From NCBI RefSeq assembly GCF_000012925.1, contig NC_007517.1, positions 70,351 to 134,350 on the forward strand: a stretch of 64,000 bases of DNA, written 5' to 3'. Position 1 is the stretch's first letter. Each line of letters starts with the position of its first letter. The notes beneath the pieces are model-generated. The model was not told the origin of the DNA. It did not search any database and saw only the letters and a program-made list of their open reading frames with translations. The translations under genes and the position numbers were made by a program. Below are positions 25,378 to 53,211 of this stretch, piece after piece. This DNA is from Geobacter metallireducens GS-15 (GTDB lineage: Bacteria > Desulfobacterota > Desulfuromonadia > Geobacterales > Geobacteraceae).

Positions 25378-26886
25378 TCAGAGGATGGGGGTCAGCGGCA
25401 GCGACTTCCAGAGGCGCAGCCTGTTCCGCTTGGCCGCCGAGGCGCGGCGGTCCGGGTTGTCCGTGGCCGGATTCCAGCTGTTCTCCGGGCGCATGTCCCG
25501 CTCGATCCGCTCCTCCACCTGGCGGGCCAGGGCGGGGTTGCGGACCATCACCCCCACCTCGGTGTTCAGGTTGGCGGAACGGGGGTCCAGGTTGAAGGTG
25601 CCGACGAACAGAGTCACGCCGTCGATCACCATGGTCTTTGCATGGAGGGCGAAGGTGGGGGGCTTCTCCTTCAGCTTCGGGTAGCGGTCGATCAGCTCCT
25701 GCCGCACGGCCGGGTCCGGGCGGAATTCCCGGATGGTGATCCCCGCCTTCAGGAGCCGGTTGCGCTGCTTCCGGTAGCCGCTGAAGGCCTGGAGGTTGTC
25801 GGTGGCGGCCAGGGAGTTGGTGACGATCCGCACCTCCACCCCGCGCCGGATCAGCTTCCGGAACAGCTCCACGCCCCCCTCGGGCATGACCAGGTAGGGG
25901 GACTGGATGGTGACCCGCCGCTTGGCCCGGCTCACCGCGTCCACCAGGGCCGCCGTGCTCCGGCCGCCGCCCCCCAGTCCCTCCCGGCCGCTGTTCTTTC
26001 CCGGCAGGTCCGAGATGAAGCGGGCCTCGTCCCAGACCATCTCCCGCAGCAGCCCGTCGAACCTGCGGGGGAGGTTCTGGAGCGCCTGGCGGACCTCCGG
26101 GGCGAAGTTTTCCGGCTTCCCGGCATAGGCGTGGAGGCCGGCATAGACCTGGCCGGTCCGCTCCGGCGTCATCTTCTTCATGGGCTTTTTCAGCAGCTTC
26201 TCCACCGGCACAGCCAGGGGGCTCTCCCAGAAACGGGCGAAGCTCGCCTCCGCCTCGGCCACAGTCGGGCCGAGCATCAGCATGTCCCGGTCCCGGAAGG
26301 TGTACTCCTGGTCGAAATCGTAGTACTCGTCGGCCATGTTGCGGCCGCCGGTGATCCCCACCATGCCGTCGAAGAGGGCGGTCTTGTCGTGCATCCGCTG
26401 GTTCACGGAACGGAAGCCGGTCACAACGTTGGCGAACCGCTTCACCTTCGAGGTTCCCACCGTCATCTTCGGGTTGTAGATCCGGATGTCGATGTTGGGG
26501 TGACGGGCCAGGGCCAGGAGCGATTCCGGCGGCGCGTCGATGAGGAGGTCATCCACCAGCACCCGCACCCGTATCCCCCGCTCCGCCGCCCGCAGCAACG
26601 CCTCCGAGGCCAGGATGCCGATGTTGTCGCTGCTCCAGATGAAATACTGGACGTCGATGCTCTTCGTGGCGTGGTCCGCGAGCCACGCCCGGGCCAGGAG
26701 CGACTCTTCCCCCTTTTCCAAGACATAGAGGCCGGTCTTGCCGGGGTGGGCAGACAGCAGGGGCTGGATGCTCCGGGCCAGGGGAAGCGTTACCGGGGTG
26801 GTTTCGGCGGCTGACAGGCGTGCGCCGGGAACGGCGGTGAGTATGAGAAGGAGTGACAGGGTGATAAGGAGCAGAGGTCGGATCAT
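25378..26886 (-). CDS. secreted phospholipase D-family protein (Cls-like, two HKD motifs)
   Basis: Signal peptide MIRPLLLITLSLLLILTAV. HKD motifs HDKTALFDGMVGITGGRNM and HAKTMVIDGVTLFVGTFNLDPRS. Confidence 0.8.
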   Translation of the reverse strand: MIRPLLLITLSLLLILTAVPGARLSAAETTPVTLPLARSIQPLLSAHPGKTGLYVLEKGEESLLARAWLADHATKSIDVQYFIWSSDNIGILASEALLRAAERGIRVRVLVDDLLIDAPPESLLALARHPNIDIRIYNPKMTVGTSKVKRFANVVTGFRSVNQRMHDKTALFDGMVGITGGRNMADEYYDFDQEYTFRDRDMLMLGPTVAEAEASFARFWESPLAVPVEKLLKKPMKKMTPERTGQVYAGLHAYAGKPENFAPEVRQALQNLPRRFDGLLREMVWDEARFISDLPGKNSGREGLGGGGRSTAALVDAVSRAKRRVTIQSPYLVMPEGGVELFRKLIRRGVEVRIVTNSLAATDNLQAFSGYRKQRNRLLKAGITIREFRPDPAVRQELIDRYPKLKEKPPTFALHAKTMVIDGVTLFVGTFNLDPRSANLNTEVGVMVRNPALARQVEERIERDMRPENSWNPATDNPDRRASAAKRNRLRLWKSLPLTPIL

Positions 26887-27020
26887 TACAAAGAGCCTCG
26901 TTTCAATTGTCGGGAAGAGCGCGCAAAAAGGGCAGTCCCGCAGCAGTTTCGGCAGTTTTGGGGACAGTTTATTTCTCTGTCGAATAACCTGTCCCCAGAC
27001 AGAGAATGTCATAGTTTCTT

Positions 27021-27911
27021 CTACCTGCGCTGCAATGCGATGTATCTCGCTACATCATCCCATTTGACAGAGAAATCAATCAATTCTCGTTTGACTTCGA
27101 ATTTAGTCTGCGCTGATGGAGTGGTACGGGCGAATTCCATAAGCCCACGTCGAGGGGCAATTGCTCCAGCCAGCAAATTTTCTGTGGTCTGCGCCAAATC
27201 TGATGGGCTCATACCAAGTAAAGTCGCCGGACTCGAAGAAGGATAAAGTAGGTTTGATAAATTGTGCGTTGCCGGTTGAAACTCGGGTACCTTGGGTACT
27301 TGGGTCTCTTTGTAATTTGGTTTTAACAGCAGTTTCTCTCTTCCCAGCAGCTTTTCTCTGAATTCCTTCGATACTCTGCTCTGTCCAGGGGAAACCCTTG
27401 ATTCCATTTTGCACGCCCTATGTAACGCCGGGCCTATGGCTGTCACAAACGTATCTCCTCGTGGCCCTATTTTGGCCAATATCAATTTCCCATGGTGCAG
27501 AATTGTTTTAGTCAAAAAATGATATTTACTGAAGGTTGCATCGAGAGATTTCATCTGTAGAGCTGCTATTCGGCAGTAATATGCGGCATAAAGAACAGAG
27601 AGTGCGTTCACTTTGTCTGCTCTGAAATAGGCAATGATGCTATCTCCGACATATTCGACCTGATCATCGTCAGCGCCAAATTCGCGGGATATTTCATCAA
27701 CCGAGGAAAGAAAAGTATGAGCTAGCTTGAGATATGTCTTATGAGTCCGCGTCCAGGTGAATAACGTCGAATCAACGAGGTCAATTTTGAGCATGTAGAA
27801 CTCACGCTCGGTCCCCTCACCGCGTTTCAAGGCAGATGGAACTTTGTCTACAATTCCGCCGGCAGCCTCGTTATAATGTTTATTTATAATCTCATCGATT
27901 GTCTTAGCCAT
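27021..27911 (-). CDS. class III nucleotidyl cyclase homology-domain protein (cyclase B), low GC
   Basis: 296 aa. CHD motifs KIDLVDSTLFT, YVGDSIIAYF and GDTFVTAIGPALHRACKMES. Confidence 0.7.
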   Translation of the reverse strand: MAKTIDEIINKHYNEAAGGIVDKVPSALKRGEGTEREFYMLKIDLVDSTLFTWTRTHKTYLKLAHTFLSSVDEISREFGADDDQVEYVGDSIIAYFRADKVNALSVLYAAYYCRIAALQMKSLDATFSKYHFLTKTILHHGKLILAKIGPRGDTFVTAIGPALHRACKMESRVSPGQSRVSKEFREKLLGREKLLLKPNYKETQVPKVPEFQPATHNLSNLLYPSSSPATLLGMSPSDLAQTTENLLAGAIAPRRGLMEFARTTPSAQTKFEVKRELIDFSVKWDDVARYIALQRR

Positions 27912-28372
27912 TGTCAGATACCCTGGGTTGCTGGTTATTTACTACAGTAATACAGAAACAACATCCGACCCCAAAAACCACAGACGAGCCATGCCATTAC
28001 AAGAATATATGCCCATTTCAATCTAACTTCTTTCATGTCTCTAATGTATGCCAGCTTCATTTGCTCAAACACCAATTCTTGTTTGATGGCATCAATGGTG
28101 TCTGGAAGTTTTTTGACATAGTCCTCCAAGCGTACCTTCGAGGAAATATCCCTATTGATAAATGCATCACGTAATCCAAGATCGTACAACCCATCATTGT
28201 AGAAAGTCCCGATGGGGCAGTCCGTGAAAGTAACGTGGGATTTTGGATTGTGAATTGCCATTACGGACCGCATTGCAGCAACGAAGGCAGCAAACCATGT
28301 ACAAAGGAACAACATAATTAGCGCCCAAAGTTGCCACTGGCCAGGCCCACAATATACAGTCTGATGTAGTTT

Positions 28373-28380
28373 CGAAAAAT
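28373..28380. repeat. 8-bp target-site duplication CGAAAAAT (left copy)
   Basis: Identical octamer directly abuts both ends of the ISL3 element. Confidence 0.7.
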
Positions 28381-29752
28381 GCCTCGTCCGCAGAATCTGT
28401 GGGTAGTTGGCTGAAAAAATAAGGGCATTGCCCCTCCGTGAAGGATAAGATTGTTTTTGCGAGAAACGATCAAGTCCGACACGGGAGAAGCAATGCTTAT
28501 CAAGACTGTACTGAACAAGTTCGAGCGTTTCAAGTCCTTCATTTACGGAGATTGCCGACTGGCGAAAGTCGGCGGCTCAGAAGCACTGGTCATTGACATC
28601 AAGGCTCGTCGCAACAGCAAGCCCGAATGCCCGGAATGTGGCAAGCGAGGCAAGACATACGACACGCAACCGGCCCGACTGTTCGAGTATGTGCCGATCT
28701 GGGCGTTCAAGGTCTTCTTTCGCTACGCTCCCCGTCGGGTTCTGTGCCCAATCCATGGGGTAAAGGTTGAATCCCTCCCCTGGGGGTATGGCAAAGAGCA
28801 AATGACGATCTCGTACCAGGTCTATCTTGCCCGGTGGGCTCGGCGACTCTCCTGGAAGGAAGTTGCCGAAATCTTTAAGACCAGTTGGGACAGCATCTTT
28901 CGGGCGGTGCAGTATGCTGTCGATTACGGCCTGGCAAACAGAAACCTTGATGGCGTTACGGAAATCGGTGTTGATGAAATTGCCGTCTTCAAGGGCCATC
29001 AGTATCTTACGATGGTCTATCAGCTCAATGCCGGCGTCAGGCGTCTTCTCTGGTGTGGTCCGCAACGTCGGATAAGAACGCTACTGCGCTTCTTTCGGGA
29101 ATTCGGCAAAGAACGCAGCGCCAAGCTCAAGTATGTCTGCAGCGACATGTGGGCACCGTATCTCAAGGTTATCGCCAAGCGGGCACCCAATGCCGTGAAC
29201 ATCCTCGACCGCTTCCACATCATGCGGAAGTTTAACGAAGCGATTGACGAGGTTCGGCGCACCGAAGCCAAGGAGTTCAAGGCCGCCAAGCAGGAGAACG
29301 TCCTGGAAAAGGGCCGTTGGTTGCTGCTGAAACGGCCGGAAAATCTGTCCGAGAAGCAGACGTCACGATTGGGAGATTTGCTCAAGCTCAACCTCTCATC
29401 AATCAAGGCATATCTGCTGCGCGAGGACTTTCAGCAGTTCTGGGACTACCAGCGGTCTGACTTTGCTGGCAAGTTCCTCGACGACTGGGTCATCAGGACA
29501 ATGCAAACTGACCTGGAACCGATGAAGAAGGTTGCCAGGATGTTACGCAACCACAAACCGATGATTCTCAACTGGTTCAAGGCAAAAGGCCGACTTTCCA
29601 GCGGCGCGGTAGAGGGTCTGAACCTCAAAGCAAAACTGACTATCAGAAAAGCGTACGGTTTCCGAACCATCAAGTGCCTGCAAGTGGCGCTATATCACAC
29701 ACTTGGCGACTTGCCAGAACCCCTGTGTCACCACAGATTCTGCTAAAGAGCC
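28381..29752 (+). mobile_element. ISL3-family insertion sequence (1372 bp)
   Basis: Imperfect 22-bp terminal inverted repeats (gcctcgtccgcagaatctgtgg versus the reverse complement ggctctttagcagaatctgtgg, 17/22 identical). The right terminus ends in GGCTCTT on the reverse strand. 8-bp direct repeats and a single transposase ORF are present. Confidence 0.85.
28493..29746 (+). CDS. ISL3-family transposase
   Basis: 417 aa from the ATG (RBS gggaga). N-terminal zinc ribbon CPECGKRG and a DDE transposase core typical of ISL3 (IS1165/IS204 type). Confidence 0.85.
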   Translation: MLIKTVLNKFERFKSFIYGDCRLAKVGGSEALVIDIKARRNSKPECPECGKRGKTYDTQPARLFEYVPIWAFKVFFRYAPRRVLCPIHGVKVESLPWGYGKEQMTISYQVYLARWARRLSWKEVAEIFKTSWDSIFRAVQYAVDYGLANRNLDGVTEIGVDEIAVFKGHQYLTMVYQLNAGVRRLLWCGPQRRIRTLLRFFREFGKERSAKLKYVCSDMWAPYLKVIAKRAPNAVNILDRFHIMRKFNEAIDEVRRTEAKEFKAAKQENVLEKGRWLLLKRPENLSEKQTSRLGDLLKLNLSSIKAYLLREDFQQFWDYQRSDFAGKFLDDWVIRTMQTDLEPMKKVARMLRNHKPMILNWFKAKGRLSSGAVEGLNLKAKLTIRKAYGFRTIKCLQVALYHTLGDLPEPLCHHRFC

Positions 29753-29760
29753 CGAAAAAT
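29753..29760. repeat. 8-bp target-site duplication CGAAAAAT (right copy)
   Basis: See left copy. Confidence 0.7.
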
Positions 29761-29969
29761 TGAGATATATCTTTCCTGAATTAGTAAGTGCCAAGATCAA
29801 TATGCCCATCACAACAGCTGCTTTGGTGTCATTAACCCTAATAGCAGATTGAATATCTGTGATCGAGGCGTATAGGAATGCCAATATTTTTCCATCATTC
29901 TCTTTGCTCATTATCATTACCCTTTAACACCCCTTGTGCTTATCACTCAATGGCTTGCAAAATGTACTA

Positions 29970-30644
29970 TTAACCTCGATTCTTACGCTGTAGCAATGGA
30001 GGATGCAGTATTCGTTTTGTTACATTTTGTGGTTCTATACTCATGAGTTTCATGCAACTGACTCTCCTACTACCTGCAATATTACGAAGGGTTCTCTCTA
30101 CCTCGGTAAAACGCCACTGTATAGTATCTTGTTTGATAGAATTGTAAAGATTTTTGGTCATCAGCATCTTATTAGCAGGATTCTTGTCGCGATCTTTTAT
30201 TGCGCTTTGCAACCTACATGCAACGTTCAGTGGCCGTCCCACATATTCGTCACGATGGTTCAACCTTATCTTGATTAACCGTCCGCGATCCATTCCGATT
30301 GTTAGACCTATAATTTCTGGTGGAGTTTCTAAAACCGGGTGGATTTTCTGCTCATAGAGATGTTTAAACGTGGTGCACAATTTTCGAATGAATGGAAGAA
30401 GCTTTTCTCCGTCAATATTGTGATCAAATAGAAGAATCCAGCCATCGCCAGTGAAGTTATAGAGTCGGAAAGGAAAGTTATCTCCTTGTTCTACGATGAA
30501 TTTCTTTACACCTATCAACAAATTACGCCATTTTTGCAAATTGTCGGTGCGATGAAGATCTTCAAGAATATCTGTAGATGAGCATATGTCGAAAACTAAA
30601 ACAGCGGCCATAACTTCCTGCGCCATGTCAGACTCTTGTGTCAT
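29970..30644 (-). CDS. class III nucleotidyl cyclase homology-domain protein (cyclase A), low GC
   Basis: 224 aa. Motifs VLVFDICSSTD, NFTGDGWILLF and GRPLNVACRLQS, with canonical metal-binding Asp residues and transition-state Asn/Arg. RBS gaggag. Confidence 0.7.
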   Translation of the reverse strand: MTQESDMAQEVMAAVLVFDICSSTDILEDLHRTDNLQKWRNLLIGVKKFIVEQGDNFPFRLYNFTGDGWILLFDHNIDGEKLLPFIRKLCTTFKHLYEQKIHPVLETPPEIIGLTIGMDRGRLIKIRLNHRDEYVGRPLNVACRLQSAIKDRDKNPANKMLMTKNLYNSIKQDTIQWRFTEVERTLRNIAGSRRVSCMKLMSIEPQNVTKRILHPPLLQRKNRG

Positions 30645-30754
30645 TAGTATATTCTCCTCTGTTCAACATAATTATTGAGCGGTTCACGCGCACGCGCGCA
30701 TGAACCGCTCATCCCCCCAAACAGAACATTTCTCCCGTAACAGGATTTCCCGCC

Positions 30755-33247
30755 TCACGCCTGAGGCTGCTTCCCCCCCTTCGCCATCAACGCATTCAAA
30801 TCCACCCCCGGCAGCAGCCGGGTCAACTGCCCCATGAGCCCGTCGCCGGCTGTGCCGCCGCCGGAGACGAGCACATCGGGGACGATCTTGATCTGGCCGT
30901 TTTCGATGGCGGCGGAGATCAGTTCGACGATCTTGATCTGCTTGATGGCGTCTTCGCCGATGGCCTCTTTCTGTTTCGAGTAGGCCTGGGCGGTGGCGTC
31001 GCCGATGGCGGCGATCTTTGACGCCTCGCCGTCGCCGATGGCCTTCAGCCGCTTCCCTTCGCCGGTCCCTTCCAGGGCCTGGGCTTCGGCGGTACCTTCG
31101 GCCAGGGTGATCATCTCGGCCTTCTTCTGGGTGGCCACCTTCACGGCGATCTCAGACGCCACGAGGGTAGGCTGCTGGTCGGCGGTGGCCCGCATCTTCT
31201 CCATCTCGGTCCGCTCGGCCTGGGAGCGCTGCTCCATCTTGTACATCTCCTGCTGCTGCTCGGCGATGATCCGCTTGGTCTGGGTCTCCATCAGGTCTTC
31301 GGGGAGCTTGATCTGGCATATGAGTACGGAGACACACTCCACATGGTACCTCTCCAGGTCGATGCGGGCACGGCTCTCGGCTTTGGACTGCTCTTCGGAG
31401 CGGCTCTGGAGGAAGTTCATGGCCGAGGCGGTAGAGGCCTGGTTGCGGAAGGAGGAGTCGATCATGGGGTGGATGACGTGCTGGATCAGGTTGTCGATGG
31501 ATCCCACCTTTGCCACCATGTAGGGGGCCTGGTCGGGCCGGACGCGGATGACCACCTTAACCGCCACCTGGATGGGGAAGCCGTCCTTGGAGATGACGGT
31601 GAGCTGGTCGAAACGGGTGTCCTCCTGGTCGTCCCAGTCGATGGTGATGTTGGTGGTGTCGATGATGTAGCACATGAAGGCCCGGCGGTTCAGGTAGTAA
31701 CGGCCGGGTCCGGCCACCTCCTCCTGGATCCCCCGGAACCCCTTGGGGACCACGTACTTCTCTTTCCCCTCCTCGATGGAGGCGCCGGTCTGGGATGAGC
31801 CGAGCCGCTTCTTCATCTCCTCCGTCGGGTCATCCCCCACGTTGGAGACGATGACCCCCACCTGGCCCCGCTCCACCACGGCCACATCGTCAATGGCGAC
31901 GCTGAACATGAGGGGGTTGATGTAGTAGGTGCCGGGGCGAAGGACGTCGAGCTGCGGTCCCCGCTGGCCGCTCTTGGTGAGGAAGGCGGAGCCGTCCTGG
32001 TAGTCGTTGTGGCCGGTGATGGGGGAGGCGACATACTCCCGCTCCGGCAGGGGGATGCCGTCCAGGGCGGTGACCAGACCGATCTTGTTGGCCTCCACGA
32101 CCGCCGCCGGGGCGATCTGGATCTGGAACAGGTTCAGGTTGATCCGGTAGGTACCGGGGAGGAGCACGTCGATCTGGGGCCCCTTCTGGCCGCCGTTTTT
32201 CAGGAATGCCTCGCCGTTCTCGAAGTTGGAGTGCTCCGGCACGCTCTGGGCCAGGAGCCGCCCCATTGGGATCGGTTCGCCGTCCTGGGCCGTGACCATC
32301 CCCACCTCACCCTTGGCGATGACCACCGCCGCCGCCTTCATGATGCGGAAGAGATTGGGATGGATCCGGTAGACCCCCGGCGGCAGGATTTCGATCTGGG
32401 GTCCCTTCTGGCCGCCGTTCTTGATGAATGCCTCGCCGTCCTGAAAGGAGTTGTGCCCCGGCACCACGTTGGCGAAGATCCGCCCCGCGGGGATGGCCGA
32501 GCCGTCCGACGACTCCACCATGCCGATCTCCCCTTCGCTGATCTTGGTGGCGAGGCTCTTGGTGACCTTGAAGAGGTAGGGGTTGATCCGGTAGTTGCCC
32601 GGCGGGATGATCTCGATCTGGGGCCCCTTCTGGCCGCCGTTCTTGATGAACGCCTCGCCGTTTTGGAAGGAGGCGTGCCCCTCCACCGCCCTGGCGAAGA
32701 TTTTACCCTCGGGGATGGCGGCGCCATCCACCGACTCGACGATGCCGATTTCCGTGTCCTTGATCTCGGTGACAGTCCCCTTGGTCAGCTTGAAGAGGTA
32801 GGGGTTGATCCGGTATTTCCCCGGAGGGAGCACCTCGATCTGGGGCCCCTTCTGGCCGCCGTTTTTGATGAAGGCCTCGCCGTCCTGGAAGGAGTTGTGA
32901 CCGGTTACCACCTCGGCGAAAATCCGCCCCGCCGGAATGGCGTTGCCGTCCACCGATTCGATGAGGCCGATCTCGTTGTCGAGGATTTCCGTGAAAACGC
33001 TCTTGGTCGCCTTGTAGATGAAGGGGATGAGGAAATGGAGCCCCGGGCCGAGGGTGCGGGCCTGGATGCCCACCTCGTTCCCCAGGGCCACGACACGTCC
33101 CTGGGGCATCTTGCTCCCGAACCAGCGCCGCTCGATGAGGGCGATTTCGTTACCGCCGACAATGACGATTGAGGCATAGAGGAGGACGGCAATGGGCACC
33201 AGTGCGGCAAAGTACCCCCAGTGGTCAAGAACGACATTTAATAACAT
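30755..33247 (-). CDS. flotillin-like SPFH/band-7 protein with tandemly repeated N-terminal modules
   Basis: 830 aa. N-terminal TM segment, five or more ~75-aa repeats (IGxVESxDGxAIPxGRIFAxVVxGHxSFQDGEAFIKNGGQKGPQIExLPPGxYRINPYLF), then an SPFH domain and a flotillin C-terminal coiled coil. Confidence 0.8.
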   Translation of the reverse strand: MLLNVVLDHWGYFAALVPIAVLLYASIVIVGGNEIALIERRWFGSKMPQGRVVALGNEVGIQARTLGPGLHFLIPFIYKATKSVFTEILDNEIGLIESVDGNAIPAGRIFAEVVTGHNSFQDGEAFIKNGGQKGPQIEVLPPGKYRINPYLFKLTKGTVTEIKDTEIGIVESVDGAAIPEGKIFARAVEGHASFQNGEAFIKNGGQKGPQIEIIPPGNYRINPYLFKVTKSLATKISEGEIGMVESSDGSAIPAGRIFANVVPGHNSFQDGEAFIKNGGQKGPQIEILPPGVYRIHPNLFRIMKAAAVVIAKGEVGMVTAQDGEPIPMGRLLAQSVPEHSNFENGEAFLKNGGQKGPQIDVLLPGTYRINLNLFQIQIAPAAVVEANKIGLVTALDGIPLPEREYVASPITGHNDYQDGSAFLTKSGQRGPQLDVLRPGTYYINPLMFSVAIDDVAVVERGQVGVIVSNVGDDPTEEMKKRLGSSQTGASIEEGKEKYVVPKGFRGIQEEVAGPGRYYLNRRAFMCYIIDTTNITIDWDDQEDTRFDQLTVISKDGFPIQVAVKVVIRVRPDQAPYMVAKVGSIDNLIQHVIHPMIDSSFRNQASTASAMNFLQSRSEEQSKAESRARIDLERYHVECVSVLICQIKLPEDLMETQTKRIIAEQQQEMYKMEQRSQAERTEMEKMRATADQQPTLVASEIAVKVATQKKAEMITLAEGTAEAQALEGTGEGKRLKAIGDGEASKIAAIGDATAQAYSKQKEAIGEDAIKQIKIVELISAAIENGQIKIVPDVLVSGGGTAGDGLMGQLTRLLPGVDLNALMAKGGKQPQA
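31570..32960. repeat. intragenic tandem coding repeats (~225-240 bp units) within the flotillin-like gene
   Basis: The repeated protein module is reflected at DNA level. It gives rise to the many spurious long ORFs in the other frames of this interval. Confidence 0.6.
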
Positions 33248-44786: not shown

Positions 44787-45761
44787 ATGTCGATGGAGTC
44801 ACCTGAACACGAGGCAGCACCCTCTCCCCCCCGCAACCGCACCAAGGAGACGATCCGCGCCATCAAGTGGCGGCTGGGGCTAGTCCTGTTCGCCTTGGTC
44901 GCAATTCCGGTCCTCCTCCTGCCGCGCCGCCTGGCCGTGGGGCTCGGCGCCCGCGGGGGCCGGCTCGTTTTCCTCCTCATGGGGAAGCTGCGGCGCAAGA
45001 CCGTGGCACACATTGAGAGCGCCTATCCCTACCTCGGCACCCTGGAAGAGTGGGACCCCGCCGCCGGCACGCCGGAGGAGATCGCCCGGCGCACCTTCGC
45101 CAACATCGGCCGGACCGCTGTGGAGATCATTAAGCTCTATTTCGGCCAGGGAAAGGGACTTGTCGACCGGACGGAACTGCGGGGATTGGAGCACGTTCGG
45201 GCGGCAAAGGCGCGGGGGAAAGGGGTCATCTTCATCACCGGCCACTGCGACAACTGGGAGCTAGTGGCCCACGCCTTCGGCACCAACGCCGAGGGGATGG
45301 CGGTGGTGGCGAGGCGGCAGAAGTTCGAGCCCCTGACACGGCTGCTGGAACGGCTCCGCAACCGGCACGGCAACAGCATCATCTACTCCGAGGGTGCGGC
45401 CCGGCAGATCTTTTTCCGGCTCCGGAAGAACGCGGCCATCGGCCTTCTCATGGATCAGTCAGTCCCTTTCCACGAGGGGGAGCTGGTGGAGTTCCTCGGA
45501 AGAAAGGCCTGGACCACCACCATGCCGGCCCTCATGGCGGCCAGGACCGGCGCCGCCCTAGTCCCCGGTTTCGGCCACCGGGAGGGGGACCGCCACGTGG
45601 TGGAGTTCTTCCCTGAAATAGCCCCCGATCCTTCCGGCGATCCCATCGCCACCACCCGCCTTCTCAACCGGGCCATCGAGCAGTACATCGCCCGCCACCC
45701 CGACCAGTGGCTCTGGGTCTACAACCGCTGGAAGCGGGTGACCCGGGAGCAGCAAGGCTAG
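44787..45761 (+). CDS. lipid A biosynthesis (Kdo2-lipid IVA) acyltransferase, LpxL/HtrB family
   Basis: 324 aa. N-terminal TM segment, HCDNWE acyltransferase motif. Confidence 0.75.
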   Translation: MSMESPEHEAAPSPPRNRTKETIRAIKWRLGLVLFALVAIPVLLLPRRLAVGLGARGGRLVFLLMGKLRRKTVAHIESAYPYLGTLEEWDPAAGTPEEIARRTFANIGRTAVEIIKLYFGQGKGLVDRTELRGLEHVRAAKARGKGVIFITGHCDNWELVAHAFGTNAEGMAVVARRQKFEPLTRLLERLRNRHGNSIIYSEGAARQIFFRLRKNAAIGLLMDQSVPFHEGELVEFLGRKAWTTTMPALMAARTGAALVPGFGHREGDRHVVEFFPEIAPDPSGDPIATTRLLNRAIEQYIARHPDQWLWVYNRWKRVTREQQG

Positions 45762-46450
45762 GCCGGCCGTCTCCCGGCGGCGTCCTTCAGCTTCTCCATA
45801 TCGAAAATCACCACCCGGCTCCCTTCCACCTCGATGAGCCCCTCCTCCTTCAGCTTCCGGAAGGCCCGTGACAGAGTCTCGCTCACGGTGCCGAGGCGCG
45901 ACGCCAGCTCTCCCTTCTTCATGTCCAGATCCAGGTAGGTCTTTCCCTGGAACGCGGTGGACTTGCGTTCGGCCAGTTCCACCAGGTGGGCGGCGAGGCG
46001 GGCCGGCACCTCGGCGAAGGTGAGCTCCTCGATCTGGCGGGCGAAGCGGCGGAGCATGAGGGAGAGGGAGACGATGAGGTTCAGGGAAAAGCGGGGGTTC
46101 CGCTCCAGGATCCCCATGAACCCCTCCCTCGGAAAGAAGATCGCCTCCCCCTTTTCCGTGGCCCGGGCCTCGGCCGGGTACTTCCCGTCGCCGAAGAAAG
46201 CCGCCTCGGCAAAGGTCTCGCCGGGATGGACGAAATGGAGGACCTTTTCCTTCCCGTCGGGGGACACCTTGCAGAGCTTCATGCTCCCCTGGGCCAAAAG
46301 GTAGAAGCCGCTGGCCGGCTCCCCTTCCGAGAAGAGGGACTCTCCCCGGGCAAAGGGGCGCCGCGTGGCGATGGCCGCCACGTCGGACAGGTTCTCGCCG
46401 TCAAGGCCGGAAAAGAGGAGGGATTTTTTCAGGATCTCGGTTAGTTCCAC
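45758..46450 (-). CDS. Crp/Fnr-family transcriptional regulator
   Basis: cNMP-binding domain with a C-terminal HTH (ASRLGTVSETLSRAFRKL). Start taken at the GTG with RBS aaagga; a TTG start at 46465 is also possible. Confidence 0.8.
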   Translation of the reverse strand: MELTEILKKSLLFSGLDGENLSDVAAIATRRPFARGESLFSEGEPASGFYLLAQGSMKLCKVSPDGKEKVLHFVHPGETFAEAAFFGDGKYPAEARATEKGEAIFFPREGFMGILERNPRFSLNLIVSLSLMLRRFARQIEELTFAEVPARLAAHLVELAERKSTAFQGKTYLDLDMKKGELASRLGTVSETLSRAFRKLKEEGLIEVEGSRVVIFDMEKLKDAAGRRPA

Positions 46451-46476
46451 GGAATATCCTTTCAATATGGATTAGG

Positions 46477-47829
46477 TGTTGAGTGCCACGACATCGTGGA
46501 CAACTTTTTGTGCCATGACATCGTGGACACTCATCTGAATCACCGCAGTTTGTAATCGAATTCCTCGACCTGATTTTTATCCAGGAAGAGTTTCAGTTTC
46601 TGTTCTTTGACATCGATAGTCGCCACCACGTATTCAAGCGCTGTCTCCGGTGGAACCGAGAAGCATTCGCCGAAGATGTTCAGCTTCAGGTCACTGCGGA
46701 TAAGGCGGACAGCATGATATTTTCCGACTTCTGGCTTCTTCAGGCGATGCCTGGGAGGTTCATCCTCAGTCGGGAACCTCAGTTGCACATGCGAGGTGGC
46801 CAGTGCTTTCAGCGGCGTACTCCCCTTTAGCTTGCTGTAGCGATACTTGCTGTTGTGTCGCTGCTCAAAGGTCAGTGAGCCGACTTTCAATTCCTCTTCT
46901 GAAGTCATGATGACTTTGCCGAGGAACCGTTGTTGGTACCGGTCGTTGAACTTTTCGATCATGCCGTTTCTCCATGGTTCAGCCATGGGTATGAACCATG
47001 GTTCGACATCGTTATGCAGGCAAAGACGAATCAGTGGTCCCATGCCGCGGGGATGTGTCGGGCTGCCGAAGAATGACATGGCATTGTCAACCTGGAGTCG
47101 TTCTGGGATGCCTAGTCGTTTCCAGACTTCCCACAAACCGTCAATGACCATCTGACCAGCTTTGGACCGAGATGAGTGCAACCCGCACCTGACGGTTGCT
47201 GTATCGACAACATTCAGGCTGTAGAAGCGAATTGGCCCTGTCAGATAGCATGGACCAACGAGATCAGCTTGGTGCGTCTGGTTCGGCAACGCTGACGGCA
47301 GAACTGGGTAAAGCGTCCCTTTGGCTTCGTATTTGCCGGTGCGCCGATGTGTCAGTTCATTCCTTGCAAGAATCCGATTGATGGTTCTGGTAGAAGGCAA
47401 CGGCTTGACACCCAGGTCCTCCAACTCCCACAGGATGGCCTGTGCACCACAGAACAAGCCCTTGTTGTAGAGATTGAGGCGAACCATTTTGACGATTTCT
47501 TCAATCTCTGCCGTTGTACGGTTCGGCATGGATTGTGGGCATCGGGATCGCTCGTCACTCCATACAGGGTCATCTCCATTCTGGCGAGCAACCCATTTGT
47601 ATAGCCAGGAACGAGACTTGCCGAGTGATGTGCAAATTGATTCCGGGGTTTCGCCGTTTCTGAACCGTTGAACGGCCAACACCCGAAGCTGCTTGTTTTT
47701 ATCTTCCATGAACACCTCCGAGTTTGATGTGGTGTTCACAGAATGCCGTGGCGACTATTCGATTGTCAGAGAACTTTGTCTACGATGTGCTGGCACATTT
47801 TTCTGTCCACGATGTCGTGGCACTCAACA
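46477..47829 (-). mobile_element. IS481-like insertion sequence (1353 bp) with 26-bp perfect terminal inverted repeats and 6-bp ATTAGG target duplication
   Basis: tgttgagtgccacgacatcgtggaca at 46477-46502 is the exact reverse complement of 47804-47829. ATTAGG at 46471-46476 and 47830-47835 flanks the element. A single DDE (rve) transposase ORF lies inside. Confidence 0.8.
46540..47739 (-). CDS. DDE (rve integrase-core) transposase, IS481-family-like
   Basis: 399 aa. N-terminal HTH and an rve catalytic core (HQADLVG...NGMIEKFN). Confidence 0.8.
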   Translation of the reverse strand: MNTTSNSEVFMEDKNKQLRVLAVQRFRNGETPESICTSLGKSRSWLYKWVARQNGDDPVWSDERSRCPQSMPNRTTAEIEEIVKMVRLNLYNKGLFCGAQAILWELEDLGVKPLPSTRTINRILARNELTHRRTGKYEAKGTLYPVLPSALPNQTHQADLVGPCYLTGPIRFYSLNVVDTATVRCGLHSSRSKAGQMVIDGLWEVWKRLGIPERLQVDNAMSFFGSPTHPRGMGPLIRLCLHNDVEPWFIPMAEPWRNGMIEKFNDRYQQRFLGKVIMTSEEELKVGSLTFEQRHNSKYRYSKLKGSTPLKALATSHVQLRFPTEDEPPRHRLKKPEVGKYHAVRLIRSDLKLNIFGECFSVPPETALEYVVATIDVKEQKLKLFLDKNQVEEFDYKLR

Positions 47830-47835
47830 ATTAGG

Positions 47836-49091
<1,256 letters not shown>

Positions 49092-53135: not shown

Positions 53136-53211
<76 letters not shown>

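Follow-up and report, generated by a model that had tools for sequence, protein, structure and literature searches.

The subject of this analysis is a gene cassette of low guanine-plus-cytosine (GC) content in Geobacter metallireducens GS-15, located in a 64,000-nt stretch of contig NC_007517.1 (positions 70,351 to 134,350; this whole stretch is called the window, and all coordinates below are positions in it unless another locus is named). Two cyclase genes, A and B, lie on either side of a gene for a short membrane protein, PycTM, and this middle gene is split by an insertion sequence (IS). Without the IS the cassette has a GC content of 0.430, compared with 0.622 for the whole window, 0.637 for the left flank and 0.651 for the right flank, and of the 64 1-kb bins that make up the window, none is as low as the four at 27–31 kb. 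The three genes are co-directional on the minus strand, and in the IS-free cassette they are separated by spacers of only 52 nt (A to PycTM) and 23 nt (PycTM to B). The features are listed here (aa, amino acids; ORF, open reading frame; TM, transmembrane segment).

27014–30667, minus-strand genes: low-GC cassette, in the order A, PycTM, B
27021–27911, minus strand: cyclase B, 296 aa (ABB30328.1, WP_004514203.1), the PycC partner of the PycTM gene
27935–28372, minus strand: 3′ part of the PycTM gene, codons 56–200, with TM2, the cytosolic helical region and TM3 (reconstructed ORF)
28373–28380, with its copy at 29753–29760, no strand: perfect 8-bp target-site duplication ATTTTTCG, read from the sequence
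28381–29752, plus strand: ISL3-family insertion sequence, 1372 bp, which splits the PycTM gene in the TM1–TM2 loop, after codon 55
28451–29746, plus strand: transposase ORF of the IS, 431 aa, Pfam DDE_Tnp_ISL3 at 1.5e-78
29753–29917, minus strand: 5′ part of the PycTM gene, codons 1–55, including TM1 (reconstructed ORF)
29970–30644, minus strand: cyclase A, 224 aa (ABB30331.1, WP_004514781.1), an accessory, minimal class III cyclase-homology domain

PADLOC profiles recognised every gene of the cassette as a Pycsar component, i.e. A as PycC (3.3e-6), the reconstructed membrane protein as PycTM (PDLC02364, 2.9e-13) and B as PycC (4.6e-11). Predicted folds lead to the same assignment for the cyclases. 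The AlphaFold2 model of B (predicted local distance difference test score, pLDDT, 85) has as its top PDB match 7R65, the Burkholderia cyclic UMP synthase BcPycC (E 9e-11), and the same structure came first when a profile of the B family was compared with PDB (1.7e-7). With the model of A (pLDDT 90.9), Foldseek retrieved numerous class III cyclases, of both the adenylyl and the guanylyl kind, at E of about 1e-10; a PDB sequence search with A found nothing, and NCBIfam gave nothing meaningful for any of the three proteins. Both cyclases can thus be assigned to PycC by PADLOC and to the class III cyclases by their fold models, while neither reaches the gathering score of PF00211. An earlier reading of the window, made from the sequence alone (hereafter the sequence-only reading), had let the cyclase assignment depend on that Pfam family, and the outcome formally speaks against it: A has no Pfam match at all, PF00211 included, and B scores 18.3 bits, below the cut-off of 21.9 bits. 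We consider this test too strict, since the PADLOC profiles and the predicted folds are enough to establish a cyclase domain in both.

The catalytic residues can be followed through both families. In B the two metal-binding aspartates are D44 and D90, which together with H164 are invariant among 115 homologues, and K168 is kept in 107 of these 115; D44 and D90 align with D52 and D96 of BcPycC, and K168 matches its K176. In A the metal-binding pair is D19 and D67, invariant with N140 and R144 among 120 A-family homologues, and by these residues A is predicted to be catalytically complete. The specificity positions of A are occupied by N63 (Lys in 107 of the 120 relatives) and E133. B has in addition a C-terminal extension of ~90 residues, composed of a disordered linker (~207–265) and a conserved, confidently modelled strand-helix (271–295).

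The protein encoded between the cyclases is a PycTM-type effector with three TM segments, adjacent to B. Its hydrophobic segments (34–52, 68–95 and 176–196) support a 3-TM topology, and in precomputed annotation its intact homologues carry PF18967, 'Pycsar effector protein' (the pJV1-SpdB3 3TM family), which is the standard membrane effector of Pycsar and Pucsar systems (10.64898/2026.08.12.744502). A local Pfam scan missed PF18967 on the PycTM subtype of 198/200 aa, which is recognised by PADLOC and in precomputed annotation. The membrane protein had been regarded as unusually short, and possibly a minimal anchor; however, PADLOC PycTM profiles are themselves only 154–160 residues long, and this, together with membership in the standard effector family, makes a size of 200 aa normal. 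Residues Q23, D30, K32, E154, K161, R166 and K169 are invariant in the family, and the charged ones, in the cytosolic helices, are candidates for a ligand site. A PDB search with the PycTM family profile found nothing. A 3-TM relative, PucTM, has a hexameric channel-like structure (10.64898/2026.08.12.744502), and for PycTM itself a pore and abortive-infection model has been put forward (PMC11224242).

The cassette is thus a Pycsar-type module, a recognisable member of a known system with an extra, unrelated cyclase and not a new kind of system. Much of what the sequence-only reading described stands: the low-GC island, the sizes (224, about 200 and 296 aa), order and spacing of the three genes once the IS is removed, the three membrane segments, the Pycsar-like character that the PADLOC check and the structural match of B to BcPycC bear out, and all quoted motifs (VLVFDICSSTD and NFTGDGW in A; KIDLVDSTLFT, YVGDSIIAYF and GDTF..HRACKMES in B). 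Its description of A and B as paralogs does not hold. BLASTP between the two gives E = 1.4 and a comparison of the two family profiles by hhalign a probability of 7.6%, so that, judged from sequence comparison and fold models, their common ground is the class III cyclase fold only and their relation remote.

The IS has all the marks of the ISL3 family, i.e. a DDE_Tnp_ISL3 transposase, terminal inverted repeats and an 8-bp duplication. The repeats are imperfect, with 20-nt arms at 28383–28402 and 29731–29750 that are 85% complementary, and the transposase also matches HTH_Tnp_ISL3 and Zn_ribbon_ISL3 weakly, just under their gathering cut-offs. GC content of the element is 0.53. Deleting the IS and one copy of ATTTTTCG restores in frame an uninterrupted ORF of 200 aa, which aligns end to end with intact PycTM homologues and is continuous at ...KIYLNFS|KLHQTVYC.... 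The unoccupied state is found in a public contig of 2259 bp (L109), which carries the same three genes without an IS, is collinear with the cassette at 93.4% nucleotide identity over 2228 bp, and has a single unoccupied ATTTTTCG exactly at the homologous insertion point. In draft assemblies of G. metallireducens (RCH3 and many sequencing runs; four contigs shown, 19 similar places collapsed), contigs with B stop 470–500 bp upstream of B, at about the start of the IS, as is expected of a multi-copy IS fixed at the site. Every G. metallireducens assembly examined is therefore consistent with an IS sitting in the effector gene. Since a functional Pycsar requires complete genes and the PycTM gene is split, with both cyclase ORFs intact, the module in G. 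metallireducens is probably inactive. A recent insertion is suggested by the cyclase ORFs, which are still open, by the duplication, which has no mismatch, and by how little the sequence has diverged from L109.

In related loci the pairing of PycTM with B is constant and the additional cyclase is not. In each of 14 distinct loci the B-family gene directly follows a PycTM gene, often with an 8-nt overlap, and we therefore regard PycTM-B as a conserved core pair. A second cyclase is present in 10 of the 13 loci that could be evaluated, it belongs to one of five unrelated sequence types, and it is placed upstream of PycTM, downstream of B, or divergently:

G. metallireducens and L109, upstream of PycTM: A itself
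L001–L005, upstream of PycTM: a 240-aa PF00211 protein
L012 and L106, upstream of PycTM: a 247-aa, distantly A-like protein (hhalign 89%)
L013 and L107 (truncated), upstream of PycTM: a ~250-aa PycC-like type
L014 and L016, downstream of B: a ~250-aa PycC-like type
L105, upstream of PycTM and divergently oriented: a 230-aa PF00211 protein

In L017, L018 and L019 (Polaromonas, Rhizobium and Geomonas) no cyclase other than B was found within 6 kb, even at relaxed thresholds. The second cyclase is hence interchangeable and dispensable. Several of these relatives have defence genes as neighbours. In two different organisms (L012, 4684–6894, and L106, 2674–4882, whose 247-aa accessory cyclases are 86% identical) a trio of 247-aa cyclase, PycTM and B-type gene lies between hsdS and hsdR of a type I restriction–modification operon, and other relatives adjoin Mrr, MqsA, RhuM, PDC-S14 or DUF1156 genes.

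Some details of these loci were recorded on the side. The ~250-aa accessory cyclases of L013, L014, L016 and L107 keep both metal-binding Asp and an EY(L)GDG motif, with apparent Tyr and Gln at the Asn and Arg/Lys transition-state positions (IGECIYLASQLS), so that the catalytic site of this type may have degenerated; the L107 copy survives as an ORF of just its C-terminal 146 aa. Just upstream of PycTM-B in the Rhizobium metagenome-assembled genome, L018 (4531–5142) encodes a protein of 203 aa that matches no family and has several hydrophobic segments, and it might be a second membrane component.

The A family behaves differently from the core pair. It consists of bare class III cyclase domains of ~204 aa, with at least 330 protein clusters and 523 metagenome hits, and its hosts in the metagenome loci L022–L100 include Desulfobacteraceae, Nitrospirales, Verrucomicrobia, Methylomirabilis and Methanoperedens. 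A Pycsar component follows downstream in only 2 of the 24 A-family loci that have at least 1.5 kb of downstream sequence. No recurrent partner emerged among 422 clustered neighbouring ORFs, no Pfam or PADLOC family occurred in more than 2 of 149 neighbouring proteins, and no small TM effector hidden downstream of A-family genes recurred in a hydropathy search. The family is mostly solitary, in contexts that vary and are sometimes defence-rich. Links to Pycsar genes exist nevertheless: the closest other A (82% identity, L006) stands directly before another PycTM gene with its BcPycC-like PycC, and in L054 and L061 A-family genes are also linked to PycC or PycTM. Among viral contigs the A family had one match and the B family none; both are essentially absent there, and such sparse matches argue that these are not phage genes. 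No homologue of B, PycTM or the IS was found among the PLSDB plasmids.

Composition and host range bear on the origin of the cassette. The sequence-only reading had proposed a search for the same cassette in other genomes, which brought up the IS-free A-PycTM-B unit of L109 and a set of related cassettes whose GC content is below that of their flanks in 13 of 13 loci. Hosts of the related loci come from several phyla (Desulfuromonadales, Syntrophaceae, Nitrosomonadales, Methylobacter, Hydrogenophilales, Polaromonas, Rhizobium and Geomonas). Lower GC in all 13 loci and hosts across phyla are consistent with horizontal spread, and the composition of the G. metallireducens cassette is consistent with horizontal acquisition. 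Moreover, its parts have different nearest relatives. Cassette nucleotides 94–729 (gene A) are 82% identical to L006, and nucleotides 848–2367 (PycTM and B) are 82–83% identical to L001 and L004. Between them lies one further feature:

29914–30031, minus strand: recombination junction of the A module and the PycTM-B module, a stretch that matches neither L006 nor L001/L004

This junction corresponds to the last ~60 nt of A plus the spacer. By these alignments the cassette is a mosaic, in which A appears to have been recombined onto the front of a PycTM-B pair at a gene boundary. The ratio of nonsynonymous to synonymous substitution (dN/dS) between G. metallireducens and L109 is 0.135 for A (0.11–0.14), 0.193 for PycTM and 0.209 for B, i.e. 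well under 1 in all three genes, which indicates purifying selection. The intact A-PycTM-B unit of L109, the 82%-identical A upstream of another PycTM-PycC pair and the low dN/dS together tie A to the operon.

Our preferred explanation, which we consider probable if well short of certain, is that the locus is a horizontally acquired Pycsar-type abortive-infection operon, with PycTM and B as its core and A as an extra input, that was inactivated by an ISL3 element. This is built on the gene identities, folds and catalytic residues, the adjacency of PycTM and B, the variable second cyclase, the mosaic, the signs of selection and the IS disruption. In an intact operon, phage infection would lead a cyclase homodimer to make a 3′,5′-cyclic mononucleotide, which would bind the cytosolic helical part of PycTM; a pore opened or assembled by PycTM in the membrane would then kill or arrest the infected cell. 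Cyclase A would form its own homodimer and serve, independently of B, as an extra input, a second sensor-synthase for the same PycTM effector, and by analogy with other multi-sensor systems this is its most likely role. Phage sensing, the identity of the nucleotide, the activation of PycTM by it and the parallel input from A are the parts of this scheme that we infer.

Several points weigh against this explanation. Some concern the active site of B: the invariant H164 stands where BcPycC (N172) and class III cyclases have the transition-state Asn, the UTP-selecting residues Y50, D94 and R97 of BcPycC are K42, V88 and S91 in B, and B has an invariant Glu (E86) four residues before the second metal-binding Asp, as in guanylate cyclases and PfPucC. 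E86 matches the guanine-contacting E118 of PfPucC, which produces cyclic GMP (cGMP), and B has T157 where PfPucC has its second guanine-contacting residue, K195. Altered UTP-selecting residues together with a guanylate-cyclase-like Glu hint that the product of B may be something other than a pyrimidine nucleotide. Activity of B is itself assumed, on the ground that loci exist in which B is the only cyclase. Furthermore, A and B may make different nucleotides, which would undercut a model of two inputs to one effector, and the PF00211 results given above, an outright failure for A and a score below gathering for B, count on the same side. Finally, the link of A to the operon could be only positional, because most A-family genes are not linked to any Pycsar part.

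Taken further, this last point makes A an unrelated stand-alone signalling or defence gene that happened to land beside a two-gene PycTM-B Pycsar, as could be expected from the absence of a Pycsar component downstream in 22 of the 24 A-family loci whose downstream sequence is long enough, the lack of a conserved neighbour in the family, the separate histories of the A module and the PycTM-B module, and the structural neighbours of A, which are generic adenylyl and guanylyl cyclases and not PycC. We nevertheless regard it as unlikely, since A is co-directional with the PycTM gene and 52 nt upstream of it, with no terminator-like site predicted between them (in a promoter and terminator scan of the cassette whose signal was not above shuffled expectation and which is uninformative), since the A-PycTM-B unit is intact in L109 with a dN/dS of 0.135 for A, and since the same A subtype (82% identity) lies immediately upstream of another PycTM-PycC pair; L054 and L061 provide further links to PycC or PycTM, and most evaluable PycTM-B loci, 10 of 13, have a second cyclase beside the pair. 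At the other extreme, A and B could form an obligate heterodimer, one asymmetric enzyme signalling to the membrane protein, as the sequence-only reading had suggested. The two cyclase-domain genes do flank the effector in a tight operon with 52- and 23-nt gaps, the A-PycTM-B unit is kept at 93% identity in L109, and an A:B pair would hold one fully canonical site, given that B lacks the canonical Asn (H164) and A has both Asn and Arg. However, the complementary degeneration that such a pair should display is absent, with D, D, N and R kept in A and both metal-binding Asp and the Lys kept in B. The A family is solitary in most loci, B is the sole cyclase in L017–L019, the cyclases that accompany B belong to five unrelated types and vary among three positions or orientations, L006 combines the same A subtype with another PycC, and characterised PycC and PucC enzymes are homodimers (PMC11224242; 10.64898/2026.08.12.744502). 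Swappable partners and B-only loci argue against an obligate heterodimer, which we judge improbable, and for interchangeable extra inputs.

A relay or two-signal scheme, in which A and B make different nucleotides and one product regulates or amplifies the other cyclase, or the effector needs both, would agree with the differing specificity positions (N63, Lys in 107 of 120 relatives, and E133 in A; E86 and T157 in B), and 'relay-like or locally amplified signalling' has been floated for multi-cyclase loci (10.64898/2026.08.12.744502). It has in our view only a slim chance, because neither cyclase has a recognisable domain for cyclic-nucleotide binding or other regulation, A being a bare cyclase domain and B adding only the disordered linker and short C-terminal strand-helix, and because B-only loci exist. 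A housekeeping locus that controls a membrane channel by cyclic-nucleotide signalling, outside defence, could be imagined from the ordinary flanking genes in G. metallireducens (PLD-family, Cache histidine kinase, SPFH); it is barely credible with a cassette GC content 19 points below that of the genome, a patchy distribution across phyla, relatives embedded in restriction–modification operons and other defence contexts, matches of all three genes to PADLOC Pycsar models, and an effector gene whose disruption by an IS all sampled strains tolerate. Beyond the preferred explanation of an inactivated Pycsar operon, a bolder one, which we offer as a doubtful extension, is that the PycTM-B clade is inherently multi-input and recruits interchangeable accessory cyclases, among them members of the large and otherwise solitary A family, as portable sensor-synthases, possibly in trans, with B making a purine or other cyclic nucleotide.

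Pycsar with a TM effector, consisting of PycC and PycTM, is reportedly due to Tal and colleagues in 2021. The present cassette resembles it in having a class III-type cyclase beside a short 3-TM PycTM (PF18967), with the TM gene before the cyclase gene, in being low in GC and horizontally mobile with relatives in defence contexts, and in that BcPycC is the nearest solved structure to B. It departs from it by the extra upstream cyclase of another family, by a B that has His for the transition-state Asn, lacks the UTP-selecting residues of BcPycC and carries the ~90-residue C-terminal extension, and by the IS in the effector gene in G. metallireducens. The order TM then cyclase has been called 'typical Pycsar' (PMC13069673). 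The sequence-only reading had taken the arrangement for a non-canonical and perhaps undescribed variant; this cannot be upheld, since a 3-TM PF18967 effector is canonical, and in a one-sentence remark Chakravarti et al. (bioRxiv 10.64898/2026.08.12.744502) already stated that some Pycsar-1 loci, with 3-TM effectors, encode multiple cyclases. With those loci the cassette shares stand-alone cyclases, pJV1-SpdB3 3-TM effectors and more than one cyclase per locus. Beyond that remark, our comparison gives a fixed PycTM-B core, a second cyclase of five types in three positions, and, in G. metallireducens, a second cyclase from a mostly solitary family.

Other systems are similar in part. The cGMP-producing PucsarTM (EcPucC with EcPucTM; 10.64898/2026.08.12.744502) uses an effector that also has three TM segments and comes from the same broad family. 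B has E86 at the position of PfPucC E118 and lacks the bulky purine-excluding residues of BcPycC; it differs in having T157 in place of PfPucC K195. Thoeris loci with several ThsB TIR sensors (PMC13069673) offer an analogy, as multiple signal-generating sensor enzymes stand beside one effector, and several Thoeris sensors are thought to widen the range of phages recognised (PMC13069673); enzyme fold, signal chemistry and effector are all different. Heterodimeric class III cyclases, such as the C1/C2 domains of mammalian adenylyl cyclase and soluble guanylate cyclase alpha/beta, likewise have two different cyclase-homology domains encoded together. In those enzymes catalytic residues are lost in a complementary way between subunits and co-occurrence is strict, unlike here, where A is complete, B keeps both metal-binding Asp, and partners are interchangeable or absent.

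The surroundings of the cassette in G. metallireducens are ordinary. It is a lone islet of 3.65 kb amid genes of host GC content, with a PLD-family gene and a Cache histidine kinase-response regulator on one side and an 830-aa SPFH/Band 7 protein and a C92 amidase on the other, and no clustering of defence genes was found among the immediate neighbours. The term 'defence island' hence does not fit this genome, although it suits relatives elsewhere that lie amid defence genes. At the upstream end one feature stands out:

30677–30710, minus strand: GC-rich hairpin, GAGCGGTTCA, 14 nt, TGAACCGCTC, with a perfect 10-bp stem, read from the sequence, 3′ of the SPFH gene

This hairpin stands 10 nt from position 30667, where similarity to the related cassette L006 begins, and it marks the upstream edge of the low-GC insert. 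At the opposite end, the ORF finder started the PLD-family gene at ATG 27012, which gives 544 aa abutting the B stop codon, and recorded G. metallireducens gene calls give it 502 aa with a start near 26886; short inverted repeats GGGGACAG...CTGTCCCC at 26990–27020 could be a terminator of B. The SPFH/Band 7 protein (30755–33247, minus strand) has ~5 tandem N-terminal repeats of ~75 residues before its SPFH domain, with the pattern ...GEAFIKNGGQKGPQIE.LPPG.YRINP.LF..., and the repeat gets no Pfam match. A second GC dip of the window (46540–49091, 50–56%) contains two further transposase genes placed back to back; the one on the minus strand encodes a 399-aa HTH_23/rve_3 protein and the one on the plus strand a 385-aa IS110-family protein (DEDD_Tnp_IS110 and Transposase_20). 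Both are adjoined by a Crp/Fnr-type regulator (45758–46465) that binds cyclic nucleoside monophosphates. A single tRNA-Phe (GAA) gene at 53136–53211 lies beside a modest GC dip at 53–56 kb.

Part of this picture is already known, i.e. that Pycsar models recognise all three genes, that the 3-TM effector is canonical and that multi-cyclase loci occur (10.64898/2026.08.12.744502). What is added here is the anatomy of a fixed core with a swappable accessory cyclase, the finding that the cassette is a mosaic, the mostly solitary habit of the A family and the unusual residues in the active site of B. For G. metallireducens the cassette is probably what is left of an acquired anti-phage system, small and no longer working, and alone it is of little consequence. 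For the wider group of systems, it gives a concrete anatomy to a one-line remark in the literature on multi-cyclase Pycsar loci, and L109 provides an intact template for asking whether extra cyclases broaden phage sensing. It also draws attention to an abundant, uncharacterised family of solitary minimal cyclases and to a PycC clade, that of B, with an unusual active site. If the multi-input reading of PycTM-B is true, this type of locus would be a distinct combinatorial branch of Pycsar/Pucsar signalling.

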